Origin: a virus
DNA length: 64,000 nt
Direction: 5' to 3' (one strand)
Virus record (IMG/VR): IMGVR_UViG_3300046787_000129
Location: 1-64,000 of that record
Made by a program: the position numbers and the translations under genes. Positions 4,448 to 19,885 of the stretch are shown here, one piece after another. Positions within the stretch are counted from its first letter, which is position 1. The number at the start of each line of letters is the position of its first letter. The notes beneath the pieces were generated by a model, which saw nothing but the letters and a program-made list of their open reading frames with translations, did not search any database and had not been told where the DNA came from.

Positions 4448-4690
4448 ATGGCTACAGAAGCACAGCTAAAAGCAATTAACACAGATTATGAAGCAGAGTT
4501 CCAACACACACTAAATAAGGTTCAAGAGAAGATTGACTTCCTACTTGATCTATATAGTAAAGACAACGTATCACCTTTTGATATGTATCGTAACCTATCA
4601 GCAGCCAGATGGCTTGATGATGCACTAGAGGGTAATGTTGAGGTTATCCAGCTAACTCTAGAACGAAAGAAGAAAAGGGCTGAAGTATAA
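4448..4690 (+). CDS. hypothetical protein
   Basis: 80 aa, AAGGA RBS; last gene of + block. Confidence 0.7.
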   Translation: MATEAQLKAINTDYEAEFQHTLNKVQEKIDFLLDLYSKDNVSPFDMYRNLSAARWLDDALEGNVEVIQLTLERKKKRAEV

Positions 4691-4755
4691 ATTTTCGGGG
4701 AATCAAGAATGATCTTCGTAATCCCTAGTATAAACTAAACCTAGTAAAAGAAATA

Positions 4756-4790
4756 ACCCTAGTCTAAATACATAATGGCTAGGGTTTTTT
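4756..4790 (+). terminator. intrinsic terminator
   Basis: AACCCTAGTC...GGCTAGGGTT then T-run. Confidence 0.65.
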
Positions 4791-5592
4791 GCTATCCAGG
4801 ATATGTCTGATATAACACCATATAAGGCTACAGGAGACCTCAGAGATATACACCATACCCAATGAACAGGTTAATGTTATACCCCCTCAGATTGGCACAC
4901 AGGGCTATTTAGACTATGTTTTATAGATAGTTATCCACAGATATGTCTTACTGTTGTTGATAACTTATCTCATTAAGAGATGTTGGGAAATGAAGTATGG
5001 GTAATTATGCACACTATATCGTAAATGTCAAGCTTTTTGCATAATATTCTGTCTAGCCCCATGTTTTCCGCATGATCTTCTGTTGATATATATGCCCATA
5101 TATTATTGATAATAATTCTCATTAACATATATCTTTTGGGGAAATATATGCCCATTCGTAATCCTTTTTAATATAAACATATATAAAATATGGGCAAATA
5201 AAAACCCCTATCGTAATGTATTATTACTAGGGGTATATTTACTACTAGGGAGTGTTCTTATATCAAGAGATGATCTATCTACCCTGGCCTTTGGCCACAA
5301 GCAAAGCTTGTATATATCTTTATATTAACAGTGTTATAGATCTGGGGGATTTAAAGATAGGATCGTAATCCCTATAGGTAGTATATACAATACATCTTTG
5401 ATCTCTTACGATCGTTTAGCTCAATAAACAATCGTATGGAAACATGTAAAGAAAAAGCCATATATTTTACATATCAAGCTGACGTGTAAAGTATATAGCG
5501 TTTATTTGTTATATCTTATACTAGGGATTATAGAGCTTGATCGTAAATACCCCCAACTTCTGGGATTTTTTAGAGTCCTTCGTAATGTCCTA

Positions 5593-5621
5593 TTGACAAA
5601 TGGGTTATTCTTTGTTATAAT
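5593..5621 (+). promoter_or_regulatory. consensus sigma-A promoter facing the early genes (antisense)
   Basis: TTGACA-N17-TATAAT with extended TG. Confidence 0.7.
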
Positions 5622-5677
5622 ACGATTGGGTCGGCCATGCCCTGCCCCCTCCGAAGAGGGGACAGAGACTGTTTATC

Positions 5678-5950
5678 TTATTGCTCTGATGACTCTAGCA
5701 AATCGTCTAGCGTTTCAAAGCCTGTATCCTCATCAACCTCTAGACCCTCTAGCAAAAGGGCAAAGGTTTCTTCGATAAAGGCAGTAGCAACAGGCGTAGT
5801 AACAACAATGTCATTTGCGATAGCATAGGCAAGTGGCAAGCCAATGTCGTTGTATTCAATGAAGTCAGCAAACTCTACATCTTGACGATAGTTTAGCCAT
5901 AGGTCAGCAAGAATACTTGCCTTATCTTGAAAAGTGGTTGGTTCGCTCAT
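5678..5950 (-). CDS. acidic hypothetical protein
   Basis: 90 aa; followed by GC hairpin 5643-5667. Confidence 0.75.
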   Translation of the reverse strand: MSEPTTFQDKASILADLWLNYRQDVEFADFIEYNDIGLPLAYAIANDIVVTTPVATAFIEETFALLLEGLEVDEDTGFETLDDLLESSEQ

Positions 5951-6128
5951 TTATTCTTTCCTGTTCTGCTATGGCACTTTCGGTGACAATCAGCAATCTG
6001 TTGTAGTGGATAGGGGGTTTCATTTGTGCTAGGTAAAAACCTACATCATCTAAGTTTACATCAACTGGGCTAATGATTTCGGCAATCTTACTCGCAATCT
6101 TTTCTTCTCTAACGGTTGTTCGTTTCAT
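5922..6128 (-). CDS. hypothetical protein
   Basis: 68 aa; AAGGA RBS; TTGACT-N17-TACAAT promoter upstream. Confidence 0.7.
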   Translation of the reverse strand: MKRTTVREEKIASKIAEIISPVDVNLDDVGFYLAQMKPPIHYNRLLIVTESAIAEQERINERTNHFSR

Positions 6129-6171
6129 AGTGTTCCTTATTTAGTTGTATGCTTATTGTATCAAGTTTAGA

Positions 6172-6270
6172 GGGGGAAGTCAAGACCCAATTTCTCAACT
6201 TCCCCCAGTGGTACCACCAGAAACCCAAAACCAGTGGTACCGTTGGCAAGGAGTAATCTCAACCCACCAA
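6172..6270 (-). ncRNA. candidate three-hairpin antisense RNA with UUGGGU loops
   Basis: Three consecutive stems; G-U pairs extend the stems only on the - strand; loops AAUUGGG(U) and UUUUGGGUUU. Confidence 0.5.
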
Positions 6271-6280
6271 GTATATTAAA

Positions 6281-6670
6281 TTAAATAATTATCTCTTCAG
6301 CCATGGATACCCACCAGTTTGGTTCTGGTAGGACGTCGTCAACATTAATAGTTTTAATAAGGCTAGCGATACGTGGTGGAGCAAAAGCTAGGAAGTTCTC
6401 TGCAAAGTCCCACCAGTCTGAACCATACTCATCCTGTGGATAGTGCTCTGCAATGAGCGCTGTCTCTTCAGGGGTGCATTCGATAAGCAATGGCGTCTCA
6501 TACTTCCTTGTGCCCCTTGCGTCCTCTACGTATACATAAGGGTCAATGGTAAGGGTAGTGGCCCAAGTGGTCCCATTCTCTGCATACCAGTCTGACTCTT
6601 CAGTCCAGTCCGCTTCTTCAGTATAGATTTCACGGTAGAAGATGTTAAGATCGATAGTCTTACTAGACAT
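6281..6670 (-). CDS. acidic hypothetical protein
   Basis: ORF 6281..6712; probable start MSSKTID. Confidence 0.7.
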   Translation of the reverse strand: MSSKTIDLNIFYREIYTEEADWTEESDWYAENGTTWATTLTIDPYVYVEDARGTRKYETPLLIECTPEETALIAEHYPQDEYGSDWWDFAENFLAFAPPRIASLIKTINVDDVLPEPNWWVSMAEEIII

Positions 6671-6932
6671 ACCATAGCCCTTCCTTATCAGTGTCGTGGC
6701 CATCGCAACCACAGCAGTTCAAACAAAACTCTTGCTGGTCTGGACATTTGAATACGTCCATGATTACTTCACTGTCTGAAGTTAGATAAACCTGACAGTC
6801 ATCACATACTTCCACTTCAGTCTCGTCCAGTAGTTGGAAGACCTCATTAGATTCTACGTGACGATACATCTTCTCGATAATCTCAGACTGCCAGTCATCG
6901 TCAACTAGCAGGGTGTACTTGGTTACCTTCAT
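6663..6932 (-). CDS. Cys-rich hypothetical protein
   Basis: CDDC...C...CLNCCGC..H. Confidence 0.7.
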   Translation of the reverse strand: MKVTKYTLLVDDDWQSEIIEKMYRHVESNEVFQLLDETEVEVCDDCQVYLTSDSEVIMDVFKCPDQQEFCLNCCGCDGHDTDKEGLWYV

Positions 6933-7318
6933 TTACATCCCTCGTGTCCACAGCAGTTGTTACAGGTGTATTCCATGTCGTCTTCTTGGCAAGCATAAGC
7001 GTCATCATTGAAAGGATTATCACATACCTCGCAAGTTTCGATGTAGAGGTCAACCTCGTAGTCAGTATCTGGCTCGAAAGGAATCTCAGTTACATAGTAG
7101 CCTAGGCGATTTACAAAGTGATAGCCTTCGCTGATTACAAAGCCGTAATCAATCTGTGAATAAGTCCAGATGGTGTTTTCTGGGGCAGAGCGAACAAAGT
7201 CCAACTCTTCACCATAAGTCTCATACATAAAGTTATCTGGTTGCTTACTAATACTATTCTTGATTGGTTTGAACTGTTCCTCAAACTCTGACCAAGTTAG
7301 TGATACTCTTTTAGACAT
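6929..7318 (-). CDS. hypothetical protein with C-terminal Zn finger
   Basis: Start MSKRVSL after AAGGA-ACCCA; GYHFVNRLGY; CEVC...CNNCCGH. Confidence 0.75.
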   Translation of the reverse strand: MSKRVSLTWSEFEEQFKPIKNSISKQPDNFMYETYGEELDFVRSAPENTIWTYSQIDYGFVISEGYHFVNRLGYYVTEIPFEPDTDYEVDLYIETCEVCDNPFNDDAYACQEDDMEYTCNNCCGHEGCK

Positions 7319-7332
7319 TGGGTTATCCTTTT

Positions 7333-7842
7333 TTAGAAGTGGAAGTCTACAGGTATAAGATACCATGAATCATTGAGATTGTCAAGGGTATATTTAGGAT
7401 TAGTTGTAGCATTATGCATATCGTAGAAGTAGGCATTATAATTCCATGCCCCTTGGAACATCTCAATCATCATATTCAGTTCATACAACTCAAACGAGTA
7501 ATCTGTGTTACCGTCATACTTATCTAGATAGTTATTGATATCAATATTCTTCTCTTGGAAACGTGAGCGGTATCCAGCAAACTCAACCTTACGATTACTA
7601 ATCATTCTATCAATCATAGCCACATACTCATCAGGCTTCTTTGCATAACTAATAATATGATTAGGGCTAGACTGATAAGGGTCACCGTCTACAAATCTAC
7701 CGCCACCGATAACAAACCAGTCATACCAAGCATTGGTTGCGTATTCGTTTCCGCCTAGTTCACTGTTCAAAGTATCTTCAACAGTTCGCATAGCCATATC
7801 TTCGTCGTCTGCTTGAACTGCGATGTATTGCAAAACGTGCAT
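7333..7842 (-). CDS. phage hypothetical protein
   Basis: WYDWFVIGGGR...VDFHF. Confidence 0.75.
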   Translation of the reverse strand: MHVLQYIAVQADDEDMAMRTVEDTLNSELGGNEYATNAWYDWFVIGGGRFVDGDPYQSSPNHIISYAKKPDEYVAMIDRMISNRKVEFAGYRSRFQEKNIDINNYLDKYDGNTDYSFELYELNMMIEMFQGAWNYNAYFYDMHNATTNPKYTLDNLNDSWYLIPVDFHF

Positions 7843-7884
7843 TGGGTTTCCGTTCTTTGGGTATGTATCTATTATGACAGGTGG

Positions 7885-8220
7885 TTACTCATTTGTCAAG
7901 TCTTTTAGCAAAAAACCTGGGAAAGAATAATCTGTATCCTGATAGGTAACAATGCCACCAGGGAAATCTACAACGATAGGGTCATAGGATTCTTCGCCAC
8001 ATTCGTAACTAGATAGACCATAGCCAGTTTCACTATTCCAATCGTTGCCAATCAGCTGCGAGACAACGATACGCATAGCATAAGATGTGTCACCCCAGCG
8101 TGGTTCAGCTTTTGCGAGGGCAGATTGAAGGTCCGTAATCTTGCTATCTCCACCCCAGTGTGAATACAACCATACACTGCCTTTAGAGTCTCGTAATTCA
8201 AAGTTAGTACGTGCTCCCAT
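7885..8220 (-). CDS. phage hypothetical protein (LYSHWGG motif)
   Basis: 111 aa, AAGGAG RBS. Confidence 0.75.
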   Translation of the reverse strand: MGARTNFELRDSKGSVWLYSHWGGDSKITDLQSALAKAEPRWGDTSYAMRIVVSQLIGNDWNSETGYGLSSYECGEESYDPIVVDFPGGIVTYQDTDYSFPGFLLKDLTNE

Positions 8221-8387
8221 GGGGAACTCCTTATTGGGTTAGGGTTTATTTGATTACTACTACGTTACCACGGATTCGGGGAAAAGTCAAGCCTATCTTA
8301 ATAAGTATTTTATAGTTAATAGTATTAGTTAGAAAGAGGCCGACCACAGATCCCCTCCGCTGTCAAGCGGAGAGGTCTGCGTGTCTG

Positions 8388-9395
8388 CTATGCCATAGCG
8401 ACTTGCTGAACAATCTTTAGCAAGCGGTTCTTCTCGGCGTTCACCATTGGGTCAAAGCCTGAAGCACTAGCAAGGATAGACTCGTTAGAGCCACCTCGTC
8501 CGTTACGATACCAGTCAAGACGCTCAGTTAGTCCGTTCAAAGCACCCCAAGCAGTTCCAGCAATCATGCCGTTTTGGTTGCCACGATAGATAGACTGGAT
8601 TAGGTCAATCTTGCCATCATACTTCTTCTGTGAACCCTTAGCGTCCTTGTCTGGGGCAGGGTAGGCAAGAGCAACAATCTCGTCAAACTGACGCTCAGTG
8701 ATAGTCTTTTCAATCATAGCCTGTGCCATCTTGTCAAACTCGTCCATGTATTTGTTAGCCAAGCCAAGAGCCTCACGAGCAACCGCAATCTTACCCTCTG
8801 CGGTCTGGGTGTGGCGAATCTTGAAAGACTGCTTAGGACCTTTTCGGTTAGCACCAAGAGCAAGGTTTAGAGTGTTAGCACATACAACACGAACAGGGGT
8901 AATGCTTGCCTGAATAGCAACAGAGCCATCATGGCTAGTGTTGATTAGCAGATAGGTGTTGATTTTGTCACTAACGCCAGTAGGGTCTAGGACAGTCTCA
9001 CGCTCAAGAGCAAGCGAACCGAATACCTGACGCCCTCCCTTGATAGAGCCAGCAGTCTCCCAGCGTCCTCCGCCATCTAGAATGTTGTCACCAAAGGCGA
9101 ACAAGTCCTCGTTCTGAAGAACCTTGTAACGCTCACCAACAACGCCAAGAATGTCGTTCTCGTCCTTGTTGAATGGGTTAGTTCGGGTAACGAATGAGTA
9201 GGTCTTGTCTGAGTTGAAACCATCAGGGGTAGCAACATCTTCTAGACGAACATTCCAGTTATCTAGGTGTGCCAATGATAGCATTTTCTGAGTAGTGACT
9301 TCTTCGGTAAAGACTGTTCCAAGTCCATGCCATGCTGGCTCTCGCAATGAAGCGAAAGCGGTCTGTCCATCTACTGATTCTAGTTCGTGAGCCAT
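8388..9395 (-). CDS. DUF932 (TIGR03299-like phage/plasmid) protein
   Basis: MAHELE...PAWHGLG...ETAGS..GG...SHDGS.....TPVRVVCANTL...RHT signature. Confidence 0.9.
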   Translation of the reverse strand: MAHELESVDGQTAFASLREPAWHGLGTVFTEEVTTQKMLSLAHLDNWNVRLEDVATPDGFNSDKTYSFVTRTNPFNKDENDILGVVGERYKVLQNEDLFAFGDNILDGGGRWETAGSIKGGRQVFGSLALERETVLDPTGVSDKINTYLLINTSHDGSVAIQASITPVRVVCANTLNLALGANRKGPKQSFKIRHTQTAEGKIAVAREALGLANKYMDEFDKMAQAMIEKTITERQFDEIVALAYPAPDKDAKGSQKKYDGKIDLIQSIYRGNQNGMIAGTAWGALNGLTERLDWYRNGRGGSNESILASASGFDPMVNAEKNRLLKIVQQVAMA

Positions 9396-9550
9396 AAGAG
9401 ACTTCTTTCTTTAGTGGGTTATCTTGATGTATAACTAGATTACCAAAGAAACTAGTGTTTGTCAAGACTATTTAGCAAAATATTTTGGCGTGTCTTAAAG
9501 CTTATCGTAACTTGATCAGGAATAAAGGGGGCAGGGGCCGACCCCAAAAG

Positions 9551-9578
9551 GGAGCAGTTTATCAACTTGCTCAGGTTG
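9551..9578 (-). ncRNA. H-type pseudoknot motif, copy 1
   Basis: CAAC-CUGAGCAA-GUUG-AU-AAAC-UGCUC directly after a stop codon. Confidence 0.55.
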
Positions 9579-9585
9579 TTTGTTA

Positions 9586-10029
9586 CTAGGCTTCGTTACA
9601 GTAGATTGGGTCTGTCGTGTAGTCCAGAATCGTGTGGCTGTAAGAATCAATGCTCACATCAATGTCGCTCTCAATGTCAGCGGTATCAGGACCATCTTCA
9701 CCAAAAGGAACTTCAATGTCAATGTTGATAGTAACATTCAACTCATACGACTTGGTAGTTGTAAGGTCAATCTCTGCCTGCTCTGCGATGTTCTTGATAG
9801 TGTCAATGTCACCGTCAAGTTCATCTGCTACATACTGAAGAACCTTGCGAATCTTTAGTTCATAGTTAGCCTTAGCAGAACGCAACTCAAAGTGCTGTGA
9901 ACGTGCTTCTTCAAGTTGCTTAGTTAGTTTATCAATGTTCTCTTGCTTGGCAATAGCCTCTGACTCTAGTAGAGCGATACGACCTGCGATTGATGGGTGG
10001 TCTAGAACTGACATTTCTTCTTCTTTCAT
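9586..10029 (-). CDS. coiled-coil hypothetical protein
   Basis: 147 aa ORF. Confidence 0.75.
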   Translation of the reverse strand: MKEEEMSVLDHPSIAGRIALLESEAIAKQENIDKLTKQLEEARSQHFELRSAKANYELKIRKVLQYVADELDGDIDTIKNIAEQAEIDLTTTKSYELNVTINIDIEVPFGEDGPDTADIESDIDVSIDSYSHTILDYTTDPIYCNEA

Positions 10030-10187
10030 TAGAGGGCTTTTCTTAGTGCTTCTAGTCTATCAATGACCTCAGACAATAACTCTCGGTAGTCACTTGCTCT
10101 TAGGTCTTTGTTGTATGTTTCGTGGTAGTCCTTATCGAACTCGTCTGACCATTCCCGAAGGATAGCCCTTGCCTTACTCTTCCTCAT
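10029..10187 (-). CDS. small hypothetical protein (52 aa)
   Basis: MRKSKARAILREW...; read by hand. Confidence 0.5.
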   Translation of the reverse strand: MRKSKARAILREWSDEFDKDYHETYNKDLRASDYRELLSEVIDRLEALRKAL

Positions 10188-10353
10188 CTTCATCTTCCTC
10201 AGCGTCTTCCAATTCTGCTACCTCAATAGAATCGACAGCAAAATAGTTTAGATTCTCTTCCCAATCCCAACCCATAGACTCTGCTTCTTCCCTAGAGTCT
10301 GCTTCTACTTCTCCAACATACTCAATGGTAGTTGTTACTTCATACTTTGGCAT
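10174..10353 (-). CDS. small very acidic protein (59 aa)
   Basis: MPKYEVTTTIEYVGEVEADSREEAE...EDEDEEE. Confidence 0.65.
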   Translation of the reverse strand: MPKYEVTTTIEYVGEVEADSREEAESMGWDWEENLNYFAVDSIEVAELEDAEEDEDEEE

Positions 10354-10357
10354 TTAC

Positions 10358-10486
10358 TTATCCTAACATCATCATTTGGTATTGTAGCCAGTCGTCAAAC
10401 TCATACTGGCAGTCTTGGCATAGGGGGTGAACCGAGTCTACAGGGTCATAGTCTAGTGGTTCTTCACATTGGTAGCATTTATTCAT
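10358..10486 (-). CDS. small Zn-finger protein (42 aa), leaderless
   Basis: CYQC...CQDC; ATG 7 nt after -10. Confidence 0.6.
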   Translation of the reverse strand: MNKCYQCEEPLDYDPVDSVHPLCQDCQYEFDDWLQYQMMMLG

Positions 10487-10516
10487 AGTGTCTACTTTAG
10501 CATTACCCTCAGACAT

Positions 10517-10612
10517 TTAGTCCTCCATGTCATAGCAACGTTTACATTCTCCGAACCAAGTATCTGGTATCTGTGTTACCCCACAGGTCTTACACGTTAT
10601 TAGGTTAGACAT
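10517..10612 (-). CDS. small Zn-finger protein (31 aa)
   Basis: CKTC...CKRC. Confidence 0.55.
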   Translation of the reverse strand: MSNLITCKTCGVTQIPDTWFGECKRCYDMED

Positions 10613-10816
10613 TTAGCCCTCTACAATCCTAAACTCATACCCATTATCGCCATCTTGCTTTGCCTCTTCAAACTCTGACTCTTTTGAAAAGTAGAAGAAG
10701 ATGTTATCATCATCCTCGTCTAGAGAGTTCCACTCACCGTCAAGTGAAACGGTAGTTGCGTATTGAACTCCAGGTTCATCGTGCCATTCAATAACGACAT
10801 CCCTATACTCAGCCAT
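10613..10816 (-). CDS. acidic hypothetical protein
   Basis: DDNIFFYF motif; probable start MAEYR. Confidence 0.65.
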   Translation of the reverse strand: MAEYRDVVIEWHDEPGVQYATTVSLDGEWNSLDEDDDNIFFYFSKESEFEEAKQDGDNGYEFRIVEG

Positions 10817-11040
10817 TAGCAATCTCCATTCGAATACAACTCACTTGGCACACCTAAGCGACCTAGGACAACTTCTCTACCTGCGATACTTCCCTCAAGA
10901 TAATCAACAAAACTATCATTGATGTCATACTGTTCCATCTCTAGGCGGTAGGCAACAATCTCAGAGATTAGCAACTCACATAACTCATCTAGGTTGCCAA
11001 TACCGTAGTCTGCGTTTCTGTCTAGAACAATCTTGCTCAT
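10816..11040 (-). CDS. hypothetical protein
   Basis: 74 aa, GAAAGGA RBS. Confidence 0.7.
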   Translation of the reverse strand: MSKIVLDRNADYGIGNLDELCELLISEIVAYRLEMEQYDINDSFVDYLEGSIAGREVVLGRLGVPSELYSNGDC

Positions 11041-11086
11041 TGGATTTCCTTTCGTTATGCTTCTATTGTAGGGGTAGGGTCAGACA

Positions 11087-11296
11087 TTATACATACTCGT
11101 CTAGATACTCTTGGATGTCCTCACCATTTAGGCAAGCAAGGGCAAAGATGATACGCTCTGAATCTGGCAGGGTAGATAGGATGTCCCACTGCTCATCAGT
11201 AAGAGCGTCAGTAGGGAAGATAACAATCTCCTCGTTCTGAGAGTATGAACCATCGTGAGCAACAAAAGCAACATCGTTCTGGTATTCGTATGACAT
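11087..11296 (-). CDS. acidic hypothetical protein
   Basis: Start MSYEYQ after AAGGAG. Confidence 0.7.
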   Translation of the reverse strand: MSYEYQNDVAFVAHDGSYSQNEEIVIFPTDALTDEQWDILSTLPDSERIIFALACLNGEDIQEYLDEYV

Positions 11297-11429
11297 GGGT
11301 TTCTCCTTTGTTTGATTACTATAACTATACAACTACCCTCAGACATTTAAGGGATTTCGTACGGCGTGTCTTAAAGCTTTTGAATAAAGGGTGGCAGGGG
11401 TCGGCCCTTTTTGATCAGCTGTCAAGGTA

Positions 11430-11585
11430 AAAGAAAACCCCCTAGCAGTATGGAGGGATTTCCTCTATTATGTCTAGGGAGTTCTATTTCGCCAAGAGTC
11501 CTTGCGGTTATTCCTGACTTGCTATTTTTATCGTGTTTGCCATCACGCCTGTAAGCCGTTGCCTAGGACACTTACAGGAGGCTTG
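11430..11585 (-). ncRNA. candidate structured RNA ending in a terminator
   Basis: CCUGUAAG/CUUACAGG, CGUG/CACG, CC-GCAA-GG and CCCUAG/CUAGGG stems then U-run; no ORF. Confidence 0.35.
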
Positions 11586-11590
11586 GTTAG

Positions 11591-11622
11591 TGAGCAGTTT
11601 ACCTAGACTTGCTCAGGTCTTA
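11591..11622 (-). ncRNA. H-type pseudoknot motif, copy 2
   Basis: AGAC-CUGAGCAA-GUCU-AGGU-AAAC-UGCUCA after a stop codon. Confidence 0.55.
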
Positions 11623-11632
11623 GTTCATCTTA

Positions 11633-12076
11633 TTAGATTAGGTCAATGACCGAAGAATAAGACGAGGCTGATACTTCCTCTTGGAGAGTCATACGAAGAA
11701 TACGCAGGTTCTTCTCAAGGATTTCCTTGCGAGTAGTGTATTCACGACCAAAGTAGGTCTTGTCGTTTGGCTTTGCTGGCTCAGTTGGTCGCTCTGGGAA
11801 ACCTAGTGCCTGAGAGTCAAAGTCTACTGAGATACCGCCACGGTAGTTAGTAGAGATACGGATAGGAGAGTTGCTATCAGTTCCAAGATTGCTTGGGTCA
11901 CTAATAGCCTCAATAACCTTTGCGGATAGGGAAGCCTCGAAAGCCTTTACCTGTTCCTTGTAAGCCTTGTATTCGTCAGCGTATGAGGCAACAGCGTTGT
12001 CAATCTTTGCGATAGACGCTTCAATGTCTGCGATTAGAGTTGATACTGGGATTTTTACTGAGATAGCACGAGCCAT
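11633..12076 (-). CDS. hypothetical protein (147 aa)
   Basis: Start MARAISV after ACCCA box. Confidence 0.75.
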   Translation of the reverse strand: MARAISVKIPVSTLIADIEASIAKIDNAVASYADEYKAYKEQVKAFEASLSAKVIEAISDPSNLGTDSNSPIRISTNYRGGISVDFDSQALGFPERPTEPAKPNDKTYFGREYTTRKEILEKNLRILRMTLQEEVSASSYSSVIDLI

Positions 12077-12213
12077 TGGGTGACTACTTTCTTTATTGGG
12101 TTTATTTGTTATTACAAGTTTAGCATAGGGGTTATACATTTGTCAAGGGGCAAACAGTTTCTAGATTTGCTTACCCCTCGACAAAGGGATTAGTTTACGC
12201 TTTCCATAGGCGG

Positions 12214-12250
12214 TGAGCAGTTATTTTCACAAAGACATACTCAGGTCTTT
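12214..12250 (-). ncRNA. H-type pseudoknot motif, copy 3
   Basis: AAAGAC-CUGAGUAU-GUCUUU...AAC-UGCUCA after a stop codon. Confidence 0.5.
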
Positions 12251-12267
12251 TCCCAACTGAATGGGTA

Positions 12268-12423
12268 TTAGTTGTCTGCCTTTACAGTAGACCAACGAGG
12301 TGAACCATTTACATCAAGACGAACTCGGAACGAGCCGTTCTGGTTCTTTACAACTTCCTGAATGACACCTGACACGCCAGACTTAGCGGTGGTGAACTGT
12401 GAGCCAACAGTTAGAGCGTTCAT
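12268..12423 (-). CDS. small beta-barrel (SH3/KOW-like) protein, 51 aa
   Basis: MNALTVGSQFTTAKSGVSGVIQEVVKNQNGSFRVRLDVNGSPRWSTVKADN; fold is inferred. Confidence 0.65.
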   Translation of the reverse strand: MNALTVGSQFTTAKSGVSGVIQEVVKNQNGSFRVRLDVNGSPRWSTVKADN

Positions 12424-12781
12424 AGTTTTGCTTCTTTCTTTAGGGGTGATTTGTTTACTTATCTATTATGACACAAGGAGTAGAGAATGTCAAGCACATT
12501 TGATAACTAAATGATAACAACATTTCTTTTTTTATTCTTGGTGTTTAGTTCTCGTTTCCTTGTATTACTATTATGGGGCATAACGGTATGTTTGTCAAGT
12601 TGAAAGTGCCTTTTTTTATTGTGGGTTTTCACAAAGTTTGGGGAAAATCTTTGTCTATCTTAAACTTGACAAAAGCTGATCTTGGGGGTCGGCCCCCTTT
12701 CGGGGGACTTGTCAAGTCACTGATTGATTAGGAAGAATGCTAGAAATAGAATCCCGATGATAGATAGTTCTAGGATAGGCA

Positions 12782-13303
12782 TTACTCTGCAGACCCCCTA
12801 ACAACAATCCAGATTAGCGCCTGCATTGCACGTGGCGTCATTCCATACTTAGTTGCAACGGTAGTTACAGCGTCTGCCATAACCTTATACTGACCTTGGG
12901 TAGGCGTCTTCTTTTCGATACCTAATGCACGTAACATCCATACGTCAATAACTACAGCGTCTTCATTACCTGCAATAGCCTTAGCGAATGCATTAGTCTT
13001 CTGACCCTTTAGCGCTTCGAATCCCTTATCGAATGCAGCGTTAGCCATACGAATGTTATTGCCTAGCGCAACTACAGTCTCACCTAGGCTAAACTTGATA
13101 GCGTTAGTAACGTTACGTGCCCAACGTTCACGTGGGCTGAATGCTGATACGATAGTTGCCCCAACTTCAAGGGTAACGTCAAGGTTACGTGCAACCTCTT
13201 CTGCAACACGCTCTGCGTCAAGATACCATTTCGACGCTTGTTCAACCTGACCGAATGTTGCACGGCTTGCAAGTTCTGAATAAATCTCTACATAGTTAGT
13301 CAT
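12782..13303 (-). CDS. DUF7178-like phage protein (HhH-glycosylase-like fold suspected)
   Basis: WY..A.........A.I.SA.SPR..W..N ... K...F ... VVIDVWM ... QA..W pattern. Confidence 0.65.
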   Translation of the reverse strand: MTNYVEIYSELASRATFGQVEQASKWYLDAERVAEEVARNLDVTLEVGATIVSAFSPRERWARNVTNAIKFSLGETVVALGNNIRMANAAFDKGFEALKGQKTNAFAKAIAGNEDAVVIDVWMLRALGIEKKTPTQGQYKVMADAVTTVATKYGMTPRAMQALIWIVVRGSAE

Positions 13304-13358
13304 TGGGTGACTCTTTCTTTTGGGTTATTGGATTATGAAAATAATACTAACAGACTTA

Positions 13359-13573
13359 TTAGATAAAGTCAAATACATCGCCATCGAATCCGCCAATATC
13401 TAAGTCTGCCATTAGTTCACTAGGCGTGATCTCACCTTCGGCCATCATTGCGAATAGCTCTCTTACGTACTCTTCATCCATTATTTCACCTTCTCAAGAA
13501 TAGCGGCTAGTTGCCTAAGTTGTTCGGGGGTAAGGTTATTGATAACCTCATTATTGATTACATCTTCAAACAT
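13359..13573 (-). CDS. two coupled microproteins (13481-13573, 30 aa; 13359-13481, 40 aa)
   Basis: Read by hand; overlapping stop/start. Confidence 0.5.
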
Positions 13574-13781
13574 TACATGCCCAATCCCCTGCGTCATGGA
13601 AATAGCGTTCAACATCTGACCACGCCGTTTCACCCTTGAAATACTTTGTCTTACCGTCTAACACGGTCTTGTAGTAACCATGAAAGTTACTAGCATACCA
13701 TACCGTTCCATAGTCACTAGAATAAACTTCATCCCATGAACTAACTTCGGATACTTTAGTCTGTCGGGTTACAAACTGCAT
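13566..13781 (-). CDS. hypothetical protein
   Basis: 71 aa, AAGGAG RBS; KYFKGETAWSD. Confidence 0.7.
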   Translation of the reverse strand: MQFVTRQTKVSEVSSWDEVYSSDYGTVWYASNFHGYYKTVLDGKTKYFKGETAWSDVERYFHDAGDWACNV

Positions 13782-13821
13782 TTTGGCTCCTTTAGGTTAT
13801 AGAATAAGGTTAGCAGATTAG

Positions 13822-13992
13822 TTACTCATTGTCAAGGGCTTCACGCAATTTTGTTTGGCGTGTCCCCTTGTATTTCTTGGGGGTAATGACTTTAGCCTTA
13901 CCTTCCTTTAGCATAGACTGAAATAACGCTTGGCTCTCTGCCTTGCGAATAGCCTCGTTTACTTTACCTAATGGCTTCATCTTCTTCTTCAT
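13822..13992 (-). CDS. small basic protein (56 aa), leaderless
   Basis: MKKKMKPLGK...KKYKGTR; ATG 6 nt after -10. Confidence 0.6.
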   Translation of the reverse strand: MKKKMKPLGKVNEAIRKAESQALFQSMLKEGKAKVITPKKYKGTRQTKLREALDNE

Positions 13993-14132
13993 AGTTATAC
14001 ATTACCATTACCCTCAGACATTTAACCAGCTTTCGGGGAAATATTTTATCTATCTTAATTGACTTGACATTTGGTAAGAAAAGGGCCGACCAGATCCAGG
14101 AGCTTTTGTCAAGTCCCCAGTCTGGCGTGTCG

Positions 14133-14297
14133 CTATTCGTTTACGGCTTCAGTGAATCTCTTAGAGTCAAAGCGTGGGTTATCCTTCTTGAATAGTTCAA
14201 TGAACGAGTCTAGCAGATAGCCAGTATCTAGGTTCTCATCATTCTCGAAAGCGTTTAGGATTCTGGCTACCTCTACATAGTCTTTACGGGTCATCAT
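14133..14297 (-). CDS. small phage protein (MTRKDY...DNPRFD..RF type)
   Basis: 54 aa read by hand. Confidence 0.65.
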   Translation of the reverse strand: MMTRKDYVEVARILNAFENDENLDTGYLLDSFIELFKKDNPRFDSKRFTEAVNE

Positions 14298-14299
14298 TA

Positions 14300-14476
14300 T
14301 TAGTTGCCTCGGTTTTCTGCTAGGCGTAGGATAAACTGGGCAGTCTTTAGGTCAACTGCGGCTGACGCATAGCCAACCATTGTGGCTAGGGCTAGGTCAT
14401 TACGGTCACCAAACTCTGCCTTTAGAATAGCAAGAGCCTTGTCCATTAGTTCTAGTGAGTTCTTTTCCATTTTCAT
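14300..14476 (-). CDS. hypothetical protein
   Basis: Probable start MKMEKNS; the upstream extension in the ORF track is promoter sequence. Confidence 0.65.
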   Translation of the reverse strand: MKMEKNSLELMDKALAILKAEFGDRNDLALATMVGYASAAVDLKTAQFILRLAENRGN

Positions 14477-14521
14477 TTCCTGTTCTTTAGATGTTTTTAG
14501 TTTAGCAGTAGGGTCAGACAT

Positions 14522-14641
14522 TTAGCGTCTGAACACCTCTGCCTCTGGGTGGTCTGTTAGAAAATCCGACATGTCTAGGGTGTGGACAGCGGTAACGGCG
14601 GTGGTGCCTAGCACGTTGGTGAAGGTCATTAGAGTGTACAT
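14522..14641 (-). CDS. microprotein (39 aa)
   Basis: GAAAGG RBS, own promoter. Confidence 0.55.
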   Translation of the reverse strand: MYTLMTFTNVLGTTAVTAVHTLDMSDFLTDHPEAEVFRR

Positions 14642-14694
14642 TTTGTACCTTTCGTTTTTGTTTATGTATTTAGATTAGCATGTGGGTCAGACAT

Positions 14695-14844
14695 TTATTC
14701 TTCGTCTAGCAGATACTCTAGGAAATCATAGGCTTCGACAGCCTCGACAATGGTCATTAGACCTTTATAGTCGTTACACTCAGGGCAGACCATAACGCTT
14801 TCTGGGTATAGATTTTCACAGTAGACACAAACGTTCTTGAACAT
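14695..14844 (-). CDS. Zn-ribbon microprotein (49 aa)
   Basis: CVYC...CPEC; GAGGT RBS. Confidence 0.65.
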   Translation of the reverse strand: MFKNVCVYCENLYPESVMVCPECNDYKGLMTIVEAVEAYDFLEYLLDEE

Positions 14845-15002
14845 TTATTACCTCTTTCTTTGTTACTATAAATCTAGCATAGGGGTCAGACATTTAACCC
14901 CCGATCTTTCTAGGAATCTTAGAACGTTATCTTAACGTTACGTAAATAGTTATTAACAGAGTTATCCACAGGGCCGACCACACCCGAAGGTGTTTGTCAA
15001 GT

Positions 15003-15263
15003 CTACTCCTGAAAGAAGCTTGGGGGATTGTCATCCCAGTCTGGCTCAGAGTAGTTAGGGTCGTTCTCGAAACGGAAGAATTCTTCGGTGGTGCAGTTGT
15101 GGTCATCCATGGTTATCTCCATTCGTTAGGGTCAAAGTCGAAAGGGCTATAGGCATCTGAGCCACAGCCACAGCAAGGGCGGTCTTCGCAATCACACATT
15201 TGGGTCTCCTTCTGATAGAAAGTCTTGGATGTCTTCATCTGTAAAATCACCGTATCTAGCCAT
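15003..15263 (-). CDS. three coupled microproteins (15192-15263, 15113-15199 with CEDRPCCGC, 15003-15110)
   Basis: Read by hand; the first is leaderless, the others follow GGAG. Confidence 0.5.
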
Positions 15264-15421
15264 GTGATAAATCTAACACACATGTCAGACATTTACAAAT
15301 CCAACACGCCGCTTTCGGGGATTCTGTGGATCGATCTTAACTAACGTAACTTGACAAAAGTGGGTCCAGGGGCCGACTTTTTTAGCTGATTTGTCAAATC
15401 GACACGCCGATAAAAAGTGGA

Positions 15422-15517
15422 TTATTTTTCTGGGGTAGCGATAGCGGTTTCTAGGGTAACAATTCCAGCAATAGCCTTATCAAACTCTTCCCAAGTGTCA
15501 AAAGTAAGTTCAATCAT
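15422..15517 (-). CDS. microprotein (31 aa)
   Basis: MIELTFDTWEEFDKAIA... Confidence 0.5.
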   Translation of the reverse strand: MIELTFDTWEEFDKAIAGIVTLETAIATPEK

Positions 15518-15520
15518 TCT

Positions 15521-15712
15521 CTAAGCCTTTCCAATGATGTTTTCGTTGTAGTAGCGAACAACCTCGCCAACAGCCTTAGTCCCGTATACTCGGATAACTC
15601 GCTGATACTCGTCAGAGGCTTCTTTTATCTCTCGGTTATCGTTGCCCATTGAAGCAACGTGGTAGTTAGAAACTACCTTGTAAATCTCATCAGTAATCTG
15701 ACCTAGGTTCAT
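15521..15712 (-). CDS. hypothetical protein
   Basis: Probable start MNLGQ. Confidence 0.6.
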   Translation of the reverse strand: MNLGQITDEIYKVVSNYHVASMGNDNREIKEASDEYQRVIRVYGTKAVGEVVRYYNENIIGKA

Positions 15713-15763
15713 TTCATTTCTCATTTCTTTTGTTACTAACAGTCTAGGGGTTGGGTCAGACAA

Positions 15764-15880
15764 TTAGGCTGTTACACCGTATTGTGCTACGCAAGACTCG
15801 CAAGCCTTTTCGTTGTTGTAGAGGTTACCCTCGCAGATTACACAGTGTCCTGTTGCTACATTTACCTTTAGTGAGTTCAT
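15764..15880 (-). CDS. Zn-finger microprotein (38 aa)
   Basis: CVIC...CESC; AAGGAG RBS. Confidence 0.6.
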   Translation of the reverse strand: MNSLKVNVATGHCVICEGNLYNNEKACESCVAQYGVTA

Positions 15881-16456
15881 CTTGAACTCCTTTCTTTTTT
15901 ATTTCTTTTTCTTTATCTATATATATTTAAACATACATTATGCGATTTGTCAAGTCTATTTGGTAACAAACTTATAACGGTTTTTTTAGAGATATCATAC
16001 AAGACTTATCCACAGAGTTATCCACAGGGCCGACCCCTTTCGGGATCGTTTGTCAAGCTGACACGCCGTGTCCTAGAGAAATAAGAAGGCCATCACGAAA
16101 CTTGAAAATGTCTTCTTCGCTTAGGTGCTTTAGAAAAAAGGTGTTGTGGTATTTGCGAATAAATAGAAGGGCACAATCAAGGCAATTGCTACTGCCAAGG
16201 CAACCGCACATTAGTTTCCCCTAGTGCGGTATAGGCTAACAAAAGCGGTAATGGCAAAAGCAACCATTACAATCTGAAGGATAGAGGTTGCTAGGCGTGT
16301 GATGTCCATTAGGGTTACTCGCTTTCTGGGGTAGTGAATAGGTCTGAAGGGTTAGATAGCATTAGGTCAATCTTGAAGATTAGTTCTTCTAGTTCTTGGG
16401 TAGTCATTTTTGTTACCTTTCTTGATTACTTAGATTCTATTACAGGGGTCAGACAA

Positions 16457-16651
16457 TTAGGCGTTCGGGCCATACCAGATACGGACAACCAAAGCGGTAG
16501 CAAAGCCAAAGAACACTAGCCCAGCGATGAACGCTACTGAAGCCATCTCATAGATACCATCTAGACATAGGTCAATAGAGAATGCCATTAGGGTGAAGAA
16601 TACGGTTGAAGCGAATAGGAGGATGAAGTTCTGGATTGAGTAACGAGACAT
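16457..16651 (-). CDS. two-TM membrane protein
   Basis: Two hydrophobic segments. Confidence 0.65.
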   Translation of the reverse strand: MSRYSIQNFILLFASTVFFTLMAFSIDLCLDGIYEMASVAFIAGLVFFGFATALVVRIWYGPNA

Positions 16652-16710
16652 TTTCTGTTCTTTCTTTTAGGTTATGTATTTATCTTAGTATGTGCCTAGG
16701 ACATTGTCAA

Positions 16711-16845
16711 CTAGGATAGGGTCTCAATCATCACGATTGTGTAACCCTGAGCCTCTAGGTTCTTGACTACTGTTTCTTCCATTGAAGCAGGGTAAGCAGC
16801 AGAGGTTAGTGGGCTTGTTGGGTGAGTCATTGTGATTCTTAGCAT
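16711..16845 (-). CDS. microprotein (44 aa), first gene of the leftward region
   Basis: MLRITMTHP...; own promoter 16877-16905. Confidence 0.55.
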   Translation of the reverse strand: MLRITMTHPTSPLTSAAYPASMEETVVKNLEAQGYTIVMIETLS

Positions 16846-17104
16846 TTGTATTTCTTCTTTCTTTCTTTATACCTAAAGCCTATACCCTACCTAGGACATT
16901 GTCAATACGACACGCCGATAAATGGGAAAGTTTTTTAACAATCTTAGATAGTTATCCACAGAGTTATCCACAGGGCCGACCCCATGGGTCGCCATTTGTC
17001 AAGCCTATTTAGATAACGATTAGATAACAAACAATGTGATCGAGATCGCCCATATTGTCGGGGGTATCTGATAGGCTATACCCATATAGAGAAAGGTACC
17101 ACAC

Positions 17105-17223
17105 ATGACCATAGAACAATCAATCGCATTCATTATATTCATTATCGCTATCACTATCGCCTAATGGAATGGGTTATCTTGGCAGTAGTAGTAGCCATCC
17201 TTGTCATGGTGAAGGATAGCTAA
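17105..17223 (+). CDS. two 19-aa hydrophobic micropeptides (17105-17164, 17164-17223)
   Basis: MTIEQSIAFIIFIIAITIA and MEWVILAVVVAILVMVKDS; GAAAGG RBS; TAATG coupling. Confidence 0.55.
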
Positions 17224-17347
17224 CGTTATGAATCTGTTACAAAAAGATTTCCGACACGCCGTGTATGGATTTGACAAATGCTTAGTTATCTGATTAACTA
17301 TAGGTAGATAAATAAATAGTAAGTTTCAAAAAAGAAAGGACATTCAC

Positions 17348-17548
17348 ATGTCACTAGTTACACTAAACAACCAGGGTATCAAGGTTCTAGCAACCAACCC
17401 ATTCTTCTACTCATACCTAGAGTCATACCAATCTCTAGTATGCTGTGGTGAATACCAAGATGTTCACTACTGCTTCGCTCACAACACCAAGGCAGGATGT
17501 GCCTTCTGTGAGACCGATGTCTCAGCCCCTTGCGAGTGTGAAGGGTAA
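17348..17548 (+). CDS. Cys-rich hypothetical protein
   Basis: CC...HYC.AH...CAFC...CEC; AAGGA RBS. Confidence 0.7.
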   Translation: MSLVTLNNQGIKVLATNPFFYSYLESYQSLVCCGEYQDVHYCFAHNTKAGCAFCETDVSAPCECEG

Positions 17549-17747
17549 CACCTAAGCATTGGGTGTGCGTATATCCTGAGTTTGGGGTGTACGTACTGCC
17601 CTAGCAGTGTGCTCACTATATAAAATGTTGATTTTTATACGGAAACGTGTATCATACATCTCTAAAAAATATTCAGATTTTTGTCATTTTGGTTTTTGCA
17701 TAATTTTTCAGAATTTGCAAGATATATTTATAACGTTTGTATAACGT

Positions 17748-17954
17748 TTATGTTAAATCTTTGTTACGTAACTTAGTTTTTGCATAATTTTCACGGTATG
17801 CACGTACGTAACCTATCTGATATGCTACAAAAGCCTCTGTGGTAGGTCTTTTGTTGGAATAATATCTCTTTGCAGCTTCAAAAGCTTCTGCACGAAGAGA
17901 TTTTCCATCTGGCTCTGCAAAATATCGAAGGTATGTAATGAATTTCTTGATCAT
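17748..17954 (-). CDS. basic hypothetical protein, leaderless
   Basis: TATAAT 6 nt before ATG. Confidence 0.65.
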   Translation of the reverse strand: MIKKFITYLRYFAEPDGKSLRAEAFEAAKRYYSNKRPTTEAFVAYQIGYVRAYRENYAKTKLRNKDLT

Positions 17955-18011
17955 GGACTCATTATACTGTAATTTGCAACGGTAAACCTATAAAAATGTT
18001 ATAATTGCGTT

Positions 18012-18065
18012 ATGAAAACAAATCCTGAATGCAAATGCGATAACTGCAAGTGCGGTAAAGCCTAA
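18012..18065 (+). CDS. 17-aa metallothionein-like micropeptide
   Basis: MKTNPECKCDNCKCGKA; TGTTATAAT 6 nt before ATG. Confidence 0.5.
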   Translation: MKTNPECKCDNCKCGKA

Positions 18066-18149
18066 GTTCTTGTACTATATCGTACAAATAGCATAAATAT
18101 AGCCATCCATATCACTGATGCTGCTATGCCTAGCAAAACATATCCAATT

Positions 18150-18356
18150 TTACGAATCAACACGGATTCCAAACTCTTTGAGCTTAAGATTTACTAATTT
18201 TGTAGAAATATTCAGATAATTGGCTACGCCAGACACAGTTTTAAGCTCGTCTACAAGATTTACAAGGTTTTCCTTGTTGTGGTGTGGCTTTGTGTTACGA
18301 AAATCGTTCAATTCTTTGTTTGCCAGATCATTCTGATCAGGGATCTTGGATTCCAT
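18150..18356 (-). CDS. small HTH (Fis-like) DNA-binding protein
   Basis: TVSGVANYLNISTKLVNLKLKEFGI. Confidence 0.6.
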   Translation of the reverse strand: MESKIPDQNDLANKELNDFRNTKPHHNKENLVNLVDELKTVSGVANYLNISTKLVNLKLKEFGIRVDS

Positions 18357-18426
18357 GTCTCTCCTTATGGTTTAGTTTAAATTTTTCGGGGAATCAATCA
18401 TCTCTGATGATCTTTTGAGCAAATGC

Positions 18427-18663
18427 TCACCATTTCTGTATAGGACAATGAGCTCTCTCAAGAGTAGTCTTGAGTCTCATAAAACATCCACACTTGGTGC
18501 ATTGCTCTAATCGATGATTAAAGAATTCACAGCTACGACAGATGGCCAACCTATCTTCTTTAAGCTGAGAATCGCTTCTAGGCTCCTTTGGATTGAATAG
18601 TGATAAGAACTGTACATCTTTCTTATTATTCGCTCCTGGGGCATCCTGTGGCTTCTCCGACAT
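18427..18663 (-). CDS. DUF6171-like Cys protein, paralog 1
   Basis: R..ICRSC...QCTKCGCFM.LKT....CP..KW. Confidence 0.75.
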   Translation of the reverse strand: MSEKPQDAPGANNKKDVQFLSLFNPKEPRSDSQLKEDRLAICRSCEFFNHRLEQCTKCGCFMRLKTTLERAHCPIQKW

Positions 18664-18905
18664 GTTTCTATATTAGCACAAAGCTTTAAACTTTGCAAAC
18701 ATATATCCGCAAATCTTAAAACCATATTTAATAAAATCTTAAAACTATATTTATATATTTCTACCTATGTGAATGCTTGCATTCAAAGTGTAGATGGTTA
18801 CTCTTATTCCGCCGAATTTTTCGCCGCTTCTTTTTGTTCCATTTTGCGAACTTATCCACATAGTTATCCACAGGTGTTTAAATATTCATTTATAATTGTA
18901 CTATT

Positions 18906-19193
18906 ATGAGTTTTACTGATTGGGCTGGATTTATTCTAACAAGTTTGTCAATACTTGCTATCCTCGGTATAGGACTCAGATGGGTAATTAGACATTACCT
19001 AAAAGATATACTTCATGAAGTCAAACCTAACAGTGGTCAATCAATAAAAGATCAGGTTACTAGACTGGAAAAGAATTTCTCTAAAATAGAACATCAGCAA
19101 ATAGAAGCAGATCTTCTTAGAAAAGAAATGAATAAAAAAATAGATCACATGTACGATGTTCTATTAGATTACATTTCAAAATCAAGTAGATAA
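18906..19193 (+). CDS. single-TM coiled-coil membrane protein (holin-like/lysis accessory?)
   Basis: N-terminal TM, KPNSGQSIKDQVTRLE. Confidence 0.55.
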   Translation: MSFTDWAGFILTSLSILAILGIGLRWVIRHYLKDILHEVKPNSGQSIKDQVTRLEKNFSKIEHQQIEADLLRKEMNKKIDHMYDVLLDYISKSSR

Positions 19194-19425
19194 TCAGGCT
19201 GCCGAGAAGGCTGCGATCTGATTATATTTATTATATATAAAAGCTATATAGCTAGTAAAACATATCTTATATATTATTTCTTTTATTTATTAATTATATA
19301 TAAGATAGCACACAAATTTACTTTGTCAACACTTTTTTAATATATTTTCATATATCTTTTTTATAACAATTTAATAGTTGTGTATTATAAACAAACAAAC
19401 TCAAAGTTTATGGTATACTTTATAC

Positions 19426-19478
19426 AACTGGTGCCCAGGTTTGTCTCTCATACCCACCGACTTGGGCATCAGTTTTTA
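19426..19478 (+). ncRNA. candidate ~50-nt hairpin sRNA
   Basis: TGGTATACT promoter at 19411; 15-bp stem with G-U pairs on + strand; loop UGUCUCUCAUACCCACC; U-run. Confidence 0.55.
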
Positions 19479-19507
19479 TTTTATTTTAGTGATATAATTG
19501 AGGTAAT

Positions 19508-19885
19508 ATGAGTACTTCAATATCTGATTCGTTTGGACTTACACCAGCACACGTTAAATGGAACGTTGTTAGGGGAGATACCTCTGAGCTCTTTGTAGAG
19601 TTCCTTGAGAATGACGAGTCAACGGTTTATGATATCTCAGATTGGGAATTCTCGTCAAGTGCCTATGATTTTAAAGGTGACGTTGTTGATGAGCTAGATG
19701 TAGTTCCTAGTGCAGAAGGCGTAACAATCATTGCACAGTCCGACATCACTCAATATTGGGGTACTGGGTATAATTCAACCGTAGCAGAGCTAGCCTTTGA
19801 TCTACAGGTGATTGTCAATAATAAAGTTTGGACTCCAATCATCGGAACCATAAAGGTTCAAGCTGATGTAACTGGAGGACTATAA
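19508..19885 (+). CDS. small Ig-like virion protein (RGDT paralog 1)
   Basis: VVRGDT...FDLQV...GTIKVQADVT. Confidence 0.7.
   Translation: MSTSISDSFGLTPAHVKWNVVRGDTSELFVEFLENDESTVYDISDWEFSSSAYDFKGDVVDELDVVPSAEGVTIIAQSDITQYWGTGYNSTVAELAFDLQVIVNNKVWTPIIGTIKVQADVTGGL

Follow-up and report, generated by a model that had tools for sequence, protein, structure and literature searches.

ACCCA boxes at early ribosome-binding sites of an uncultured phage as candidate pairing sites for a structured phage RNA

Introduction

Short ACCCA boxes adjoin the translation starts of early genes in a 64,000-nucleotide stretch of viral DNA (positions 1 to 64,000 of the IMG/VR virus record IMGVR_UViG_3300046787_000129; hereafter the window), and the question raised by this locus is what, if anything, reads them. 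The window covers the initial 64 kb of a phage genome assembled as a single contig of 109,629 bp. Genes lie on the + strand up to approximately 4.7 kb and again beyond about 18.4 kb; in between, starting near 5 kb, they lie on the - strand in a block rich in small open reading frames (ORFs), which is the early block. The original prediction held that the boxes define a post-transcriptional regulon, read either by an RNA encoded at 6172 or by an RNA-binding protein acting in the fashion of CsrA or RegA.

The two halves of that proposal fared differently. The RNA half gained ground, as the loops of the 6172 RNA complement the boxes, the spellings of loop and box co-vary among related phages, and relatives devoid of the RNA module are nearly box-free, whereas the protein half did not. 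Comparative evidence thus supports, though it does not prove, the 6172 RNA as the reader of a post-transcriptional regulon, and we put at roughly 0.55 the probability that a phage RNA pairs with the boxes and so masks the ribosome sites of early genes.

Enrichment and placement of the boxes

Gene calls came from our own simple caller (codon log-odds plus a Shine-Dalgarno (SD) score), which is crude and whose SD term is unable to favour C boxes. With the 36 genes of the - strand block at 5000-18500 taken as the early set and 120 other genes as the comparison set, ACCCA occurred within -30..+3 of the start in 9/36 early genes versus 1/120 others (Fisher 6.6e-6), although one of the nine hits (14546, before an ORF called at 14300-14521) probably precedes a miscalled start and is not to be counted. 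This contrast excludes the outcome of no enrichment and agrees with the earlier remark that ACCCA is absent from structural-gene starts. Hits in the early windows numbered 12 against 2.9 expected from block density (binomial 1.3e-5), and AACCCA was the top non-SD 6-mer at early starts (7 genes, 0.89 expected), outranked by the SD-type words AGAAAG and AAGGAG.

Two further tests, free of gene calls, gave a concordant picture. The pattern ACCCA-N0-1-ATG was found 8 times on the early sense strand, compared with 0.60 +/- 0.81 in dinucleotide-preserving shuffles (maximum 4); the early antisense strand had none, and 81 kb of late-block sequence had 2. For ACCC[AC]-N1-8-SD, the count was 5 against 0.21 expected.

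Genuine box instances spell (A/U)AACCCA(A/C)(U/A) and occupy two positions, box 1 lying 1-7 nucleotides (nt) upstream of the SD and box 2 standing against the ATG. Both boxes occur together, one on either side of the SD as had been proposed, in three genes (those starting at 7842, 12076 and 13303). Genes with boxes are mostly the first cistron after a sigma-70-like promoter; the distance of box 1 from the -10 box nevertheless ranges from 7 to approximately 20 nt while that from the SD is nearly fixed, so the anchor is the ribosome site rather than the promoter, and a tie of the boxes to the transcription start was rejected on these distances. The enriched purine words AGAAAG, GAAAGG and AAGGAG are pieces of AGAAAGGAGG, the complement of CCUCCUUUCU, which is the 3' tail of Gram-positive 16S rRNA. 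Pairing of the boxes themselves with this tail was rejected, as the tail complement accounts for the SD and not for the C boxes.

A three-hairpin module with complementary loops

The RNA module lies at 6172-6270 on the - strand, at the 3' end of an early operon, and is predicted to fold into three hairpins (-48.7 kcal/mol, z = -3.6). The first hairpin, H1 (6243-6270), is conserved and has a GUUGAG-N4-CUCC core. It is followed by H2 (6210-6241), with an 11-bp stem and the loop UUUUGGGUUU, complement of AAACCCAAAA, and by H3 (6172-6206), with a 13-14-bp stem and the loop AAUUGGG(U), complement of ACCCAAUU; the 3' arm of H3 contains the -35 box of the next promoter (TTGACT, 6183-6178). In silico, the H3 loop AAUUGGGU and the H2 loop are complementary to the boxes over 6-9 contiguous nt, and the predicted loop-leader duplexes of the box genes range from -9 to -14.5 kcal/mol. 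Across the whole 109.6-kb genome, H2 and H3 are the only hairpins with a stem of at least 11 bp that show UGGGU in the loop.

The module is kept at the same place in related phages, and in the H2 hairpins of 27 distinct relatives the pairs 4-10 are always paired, with 4-6 pair types each, indicating compensatory changes. An Rfam cmscan of positions 4500-19600, on both strands and at E <= 1, returned no match among 4227 families.

Co-variation of loops and boxes among relatives

Relatives were collected by scanning IMG/VR with the DUF932 protein encoded at 8388-9395, which returned 443 related stretches, 80 of which were examined; a second protein scan, started from contig L042, contributed about 20 more and yielded no closer relative of L042 itself. 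Searches of IMG/VR with a 14-base H1 pattern gave mostly chance matches, and a gapped pattern combining H1 with the UUGGGUU loop matched the L042 contig only, which is the sole other contig found with the loops of this phage.

In 1880 non-redundant start regions pooled from the relatives, the top non-SD word is AACCCC (120 versus 16 expected), followed by ACCCCA (109 versus 24), with ACCCA not enriched family-wide (68 versus 56). The positions of AACCC are bimodal, at -26..-20 (typically 4-7 nt before GAAAG, the family SD being of the AGAAAG type) and at -8..-6, against the ATG. Most of the 80 relatives carry ACCCC, UCCCC or CCCU, rather than ACCCA, before the SD of the orthologous DUF932 leader, and the two-box layout is kept in orthologues of gene 7333-7842 whose proteins are just 35-65% identical, with ACCCC-aaaagaaag-AACCCC-a-ATG recurring. 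Because relatives carry AACCCC at the same two positions, ACCCA is, judging from sequence, the form that a conserved two-box design takes in this phage. The last letter of the box in the pooled relatives, which mostly have GGGG loops, follows the order AACCCC > AACCCU > AACCCA >> AACCCG, and such an order (C > U > A >> G) fits what U-G wobble tolerance in RNA would produce.

The spelling of the boxes follows that of the loop when loci are grouped by H2 apex and boxes are counted in de-duplicated start regions. Phages with the loop AAGGGGUU (684 start regions) have AACCCC 70 times, TACCCC and AACCCA 9 times each and GACCCA 5 times, and those with the loop UAGGGGUA (287 start regions) have AACCCC 16, TACCCC 12 and TACCCT 13 times, giving TACCC[CT] 25 versus AACCC[CT] 21. 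With the loop UUGGGUU, represented by this phage and L042 (56 start regions), the counts are AACCCA 10, CACCCA 4 and AACCCC 0, and in a distant clade with the loop (A/U)UUGGGUC and a two-hairpin module in the same place (86 start regions), GACCCA occurs 7 times, always as GACCCAAUG. Fisher tests of the contrasts between loop classes gave 7.7e-7, 3.1e-3, 7e-9 and 2.6e-4. A 3x3 table of the loop nucleotide two after the G run (U, A, C) against the first box letter (A, U, G) gave chi2 = 57.7 (p = 9e-12), the complementary letter being raised in each row (0.73, 0.43, 0.48).

The H3 loop shows a related pattern. In many relatives it is an anti-Shine-Dalgarno look-alike (UUUCCUACUUUC or UUACCUUUCUUAC), as in L017 (13738-13779), L020 (14906-14948) and the modules of L006 and L023. 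The off-consensus SD extension GAAAGUAG is six-fold more frequent where the H3 loop is CCUACUUUC: such phages have it at 42/567 starts, and the two remaining groups at 17/1467 and 1/289. This match is a second, independent co-variation.

Box density also differs with the presence of the module: the median is 0.18 for the 58 loci that have a G-loop hairpin and 0.035 for 6 non-redundant module-less loci (p = 7e-5). One module-less relative, L004, with 86% DUF932 identity and the same gene order, has only the promoter at the module site and 0-1 boxes in 47 starts.

A cultured relative gives a further point of reference. In the region 7700-13400 of Streptomyces phage Bmoc (L238, NC_055842.1), GGAACCCCAAATG is present at 2 early genes, namely gp16 and gp7 (Lsr2-like). 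A local GGGAG...CUCCC hairpin lies upstream of the SD in several further leaders, and no G-loop module was found in the 16 kb examined.

Weight of the evidence and alternative explanations

Several observations weigh against reading the boxes as RNA-pairing sites. The loop classes are clades, so the box-site counts are not independent, and the co-variation is supported by approximately 3 or 4 independent loop changes. In L042, ACCCA boxes occur only in 4 module-adjacent genes, farther starts keeping ACCCC, which implies that a single mosaic block can carry both the module and the leaders beside it. L035, with the loop UUGGGUA, is without ACCCA boxes, and the AGUGGGUC and GUAGGGUCA classes follow the pairing rule at the first box letter only. 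Furthermore, in phages whose loop is GGGG, the two flanking nucleotides on either side are paired with each other and belong to the stem, so that box pairing would require an opened stem top. The box seeds are short. Taken in bulk, early starts have no clear advantage over random windows of the early strand in their duplex energy with the loops (p = 0.08, 0.57), and shuffled loops match the real ones in 21/200 and 10/200 trials; since this bulk test is weak, the k-mer and comparative tests are relied on here. Finally, RNA pairing and a double-strand DNA motif read both ways are not distinguishable by co-variation alone.

The rival that survives best, unlikely as it is, treats the boxes as a ribosome-level feature: C/A-rich, G-free flanks that keep the SD unstructured, or a translational enhancer of early genes with strong expression, with the loop complementarity a coincidence. 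Boxes anchored to the SD and AUG, leaders that are G-poor apart from the SD, CA-rich leaders without CCC in more distant relatives, and the GGAACCCCAAATG sites of Bmoc, in whose examined stretch the module was not found, are all in keeping with this explanation. It does not, however, predict that box spelling tracks loop spelling or that boxes are lacking in module-less relatives, and the motif (AACCCA(A/U) in this phage, AACCCC in its relatives) has a specificity well beyond that of its composition.

Less likely still is a phage or host RNA-binding protein that reads the CCC boxes in CsrA or RegA style, the module being irrelevant or at most a competitor. Two short motifs with variable spacing around the SD resemble a CsrA target layout, and the function of many early proteins is unknown; yet a sponge for such a protein would bear the same motif and not its complement, and with a protein reader the complementarity between loops and boxes would go unexplained. 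Scans of 10 early proteins against Pfam and PHROGs gave no match to a CsrA-like or RegA-like family. The original prediction had offered as a candidate the 51-amino-acid product of the ORF at 12268-12423, a highly conserved small beta protein. In Pfam it gives only a sub-threshold KOW match; its confident AlphaFold model (predicted local distance difference test score 82) has four strands in a small barrel, for which Foldseek returned weak biotinyl-domain or Tudor-like matches only, none significant. The ORF is present in L047, L049, L211, L213 and L004, all relatives without module or boxes, and its product was rejected as the box reader, because its distribution does not track the boxes and it has no significant family or fold match.

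It is improbable, too, that the boxes are double-strand DNA sites (AACCCA/TGGGTT) for a DNA-binding regulator, in one orientation at the leaders and in the other at the module. A DNA-binding protein would equally make all its sites co-vary with one reader, and DNA-level signals, among them DnaA boxes and repeated promoter elements, are densely packed in the early region. Against this stands a strict strand bias, the C strand being sense at 12/12 leader sites and the G strand at 2/2 module sites. In addition, the module copies sit precisely in hairpin loops, the hairpins being preserved by compensatory changes, leader spacing is fixed to the SD and ATG and not to the -10 or -35, and U-for-C substitutions fit wobble pairing.

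That the boxes are functionless remnants of duplicated or recombining promoter-leader cassettes, hitch-hiking with mosaic exchange, is very improbable, for although the leaders of 12076, 13303, 9395 and 12423 are visibly related and leaders swap independently of genes (L001 has a 98% identical DUF932 protein and a different leader), the SD sequence and length differ among box-bearing leaders, boxes survive at 35-45% protein identity, and the loop complementarity is left unexplained.

Individual box-bearing leaders

All ACCCA sites named in the original prediction are present on the - strand, as are the AUCCA variants at 11041 and 13329. Box 2 of gene 6929-7318 (7319-7323) is an AACCCA against the ATG, and orthologous leaders of this gene have AACCCC-A-ATG or ACCCC-ATG in >25 relatives. 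Gene 7333-7842 has box 1 (7858-7862) and box 2 (7843-7847) on either side of the SD GAACGGA, and the best predicted duplex of its leader with the H2 loop has -14.5 kcal/mol. The same flanking arrangement is found in gene 11633-12076 (box 1 at 12097-12101, box 2 at 12077-12081, SD AAAGAAAGUAG) and in the DUF7178 gene 12782-13303 (box 1 at 13321-13325, box 2 at 13304-13308, SD AAAGAAAGAG).

Box 1 stands upstream of the SD AAGGAG of gene 7885-8220 (8235-8239) and upstream of the SD AAAGAAAGAAG of the DUF932 gene 8388-9395 (9415-9419). Box 2 overlaps the start codon (ACCCATG) of gene 11087-11296 (11296-11300), and in the small Cys-rich ORF starting at 15198 it is part of GGAG-ACCCA-A-ATG (15201-15205), with a predicted loop duplex of -13.2 kcal/mol. 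The 51-amino-acid ORF has, upstream of its SD, the ACCCC variant of box 1 (12443-12447, - strand) that had also been reported and that is the family-wide spelling. In most relatives, the orthologues of this ORF have a leader hairpin of their own just before the SD (for example GUCCCUCUGGGGC or CCUAG-N-CUAGG), and the ACCCC box of this phage stands in its place.

Genome setting and host

Homologues of the DUF932 early protein are nearly all from actinophages (Mycobacterium 264, Streptomyces 116, Microbacterium 58, and other records), the top one, 57% identical, coming from Streptomyces Samistivirus phages. As these homologues are almost confined to actinophages, the host is likely actinobacterial. 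Near-identity and protein searches of a phage collection with the early region and a 1218-amino-acid late protein gave no match. The contig ends (genome 1-1002, which is also window 1-1002, and 108628-109629) form a 1002-bp direct repeat of 96.5% identity, with the leading 107 nt identical between the copies, which suggests a diverged terminal repeat and not an assembly overlap.

Outside the early block, many middle or late genes (+ strand starts at 23306, 26715, 28294, 34811, 36747, 40422 and 42510) have an extended -10 element (TGnTATAAT-like) whose end lies 6-9 nt before the ATG, and no SD; their mRNAs would be leaderless. Leaderless mRNAs are common in Actinobacteria.

Several other repeated elements populate the early region. 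Perfect DnaA-box words (TTATCCACA), often in tandem pairs, lie at 4924-4941, 14943-14972, 15999-16028, 16945-16974 and 18857-18874, and in the early intergenic regions they adjoin a GGGCCGACC core and a TTGTCAAG element. A promoter-like unit, AAATGTCTGA(C/G)3-N8-TAnnnT on the - strand, often overlaps the stop codon of the preceding ORF (approximately 10519, 11088, 11349, 14024, 14524, 14697, 14896, 15295, 15766 and 16459); the genes downstream of it are mostly without ACCCA boxes. A hairpin-like repeat, CCUGAGCAAGU...AAACUGCUC, also on the - strand, follows three early units (genes ending at 12268, 11633 and 9586) at about 12215-12250, 11590-11625 and 9550-9580, and distant relatives have a similar aaactgctcaac upstream of their C boxes.

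Proposed mechanism and implications

On the RNA-pairing reading, the module RNA (6172-6270, - strand) would dock with its G-rich loops onto early mRNAs at their ACCCA boxes. Read-through from early promoters would end in the module, with H3 as a putative terminator (a long G+C stem and no U tract); terminators without a U tract are of a type common in Actinobacteria. The module RNA, or in cis the 3' end of the polycistronic RNA itself, would then base-pair with the two boxes by way of H2 and H3, covering the 15-20 nt that hold the SD and reaching the AUG, and so masking or clamping the SD-AUG segment. The likeliest effect would be a block of 30S binding and hence a delayed shut-off of early proteins as the module RNA accumulates, which would affect the first cistron of each early unit, with overlapping downstream ORFs presumably following by coupling. 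Three points in this scheme are inferred only: a stable RNA made from the module, its pairing in trans or in cis, and repression as the outcome, activation or stabilisation being the less likely effect.

More tentatively, and with odds somewhat short of even, an uncultured actinophage family of approximately 110 kb may time its early-protein synthesis with one terminator-embedded RNA whose two loops, G-rich or anti-SD-like, clamp the ribosome sites of about 12 early mRNAs through C-rich boxes private to them, in lineage-specific dialects, which would comprise GGGGUU/AACCCC, GGGGUA/UACCCC, UGGGUU/AACCCA and UGGGUC/GACCCA. Early-gene shut-off is understood in few model phages, where it is mostly protein-based (T4 RegA, RegB and polymerase changes). 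If the proposal is true, an environmental actinophage family uses one small structured RNA together with a short tag on each early message, the matched spellings of loop and tag constitute a natural set of orthogonal RNA switch pairs, and the strong conservation of the terminator-promoter module at 6172 is explained. The RNA-pairing reading also predicts that specificity can be swapped between spellings.

Relation to known regulatory systems

The features found here, namely a conserved structure, an exposed seed, complementary sites and seed-target co-variation, are those of base-pairing regulatory RNAs in general. Judged by the lack of an Rfam match, the different motifs and the lack of related proteins among the 10 early proteins, however, the module and its boxes do not appear to belong to any of the families compared below.

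In T4, the RegB endonuclease and the RegA repressor shut off many early mRNAs through a short motif in the initiation region (PMC3014915). The system proposed here would be like them in purpose, namely early mRNA shut-off at initiation regions, and unlike them in its motif and in the nature of the reader, which in T4 is a protein. RegB cleaves early SDs at GGAG and RegA binds AU-rich sites at the AUG, whereas the present motif is C-rich and flanks the SD, and no match to either protein was found among the 10 early proteins. A CsrA/RsmA regulon is likewise not indicated, the motif being ACCCA/AACCCC and not GGA, and the CsrA family being absent from the same 10 proteins (Pfam, PHROGs).

Closer in chemistry is the 6C small RNA of Actinobacteria, which binds multiple targets independently of a chaperone through a few G-C pairs between a loop and single-stranded mRNA (PMC6486639). 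The module would share with it loop-mediated G-C pairing without a chaperone, in the likely host phylum, and would differ in polarity, 6C having C-rich loops and G-rich targets while the module loops are G-rich and the boxes C-rich, and in origin, 6C being a host gene. With G/U-rich loops in place of two C-rich-loop hairpins, and with no match to the Rfam model, the module does not fall within the 6C family.

In Staphylococcus aureus, RNAIII and RsaE pair through their loops with the SD itself, and in Escherichia coli two loops of OxyS pair with two sites of one mRNA, fhlA. The present arrangement resembles these in directing hairpin loops at sites at or beside the SD, with two loops for two sites, and differs from RNAIII and RsaE in that the loops match the SD-flanking boxes and not the SD. 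In many relatives the anti-SD-like H3 loop (CCUACUUUC) would instead pair with the SD variant GAAAGUAG.

The closest working parallel is probably the c4 antisense RNA of phages P1 and P7, which RNase P frees from a precursor transcript and for which Citron and Schuster reportedly described, in 1990, two-site pairing and P1/P7 heteroimmunity. In the immI region of these phages, c4 blocks ant (PMC8198154). The module does not match the Rfam C4 model (no match at E <= 1 across 4500-19600) and differs from c4 in its layout, since c4 acts within one operon from a place upstream of its target, whereas some 10 dispersed start regions are concerned here and the module RNA, which is fused to the promoter that follows it, forms the 3' end of an operon. 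Like c4, however, it would be a structured phage RNA in the same transcription unit as its target, with two exposed short segments facing two sites around a ribosome-binding site (icd/ant for c4). This two-site complementarity is borne out in silico by the H2 and H3 loops. P1 and P7, moreover, differ by matched changes in RNA and target, as the loop and box spellings do between the phages compared here, and if the proposed pairing is real, such dialects could give rise to lineage-specific interference between co-infecting relatives, as in P1 and P7 with c4.

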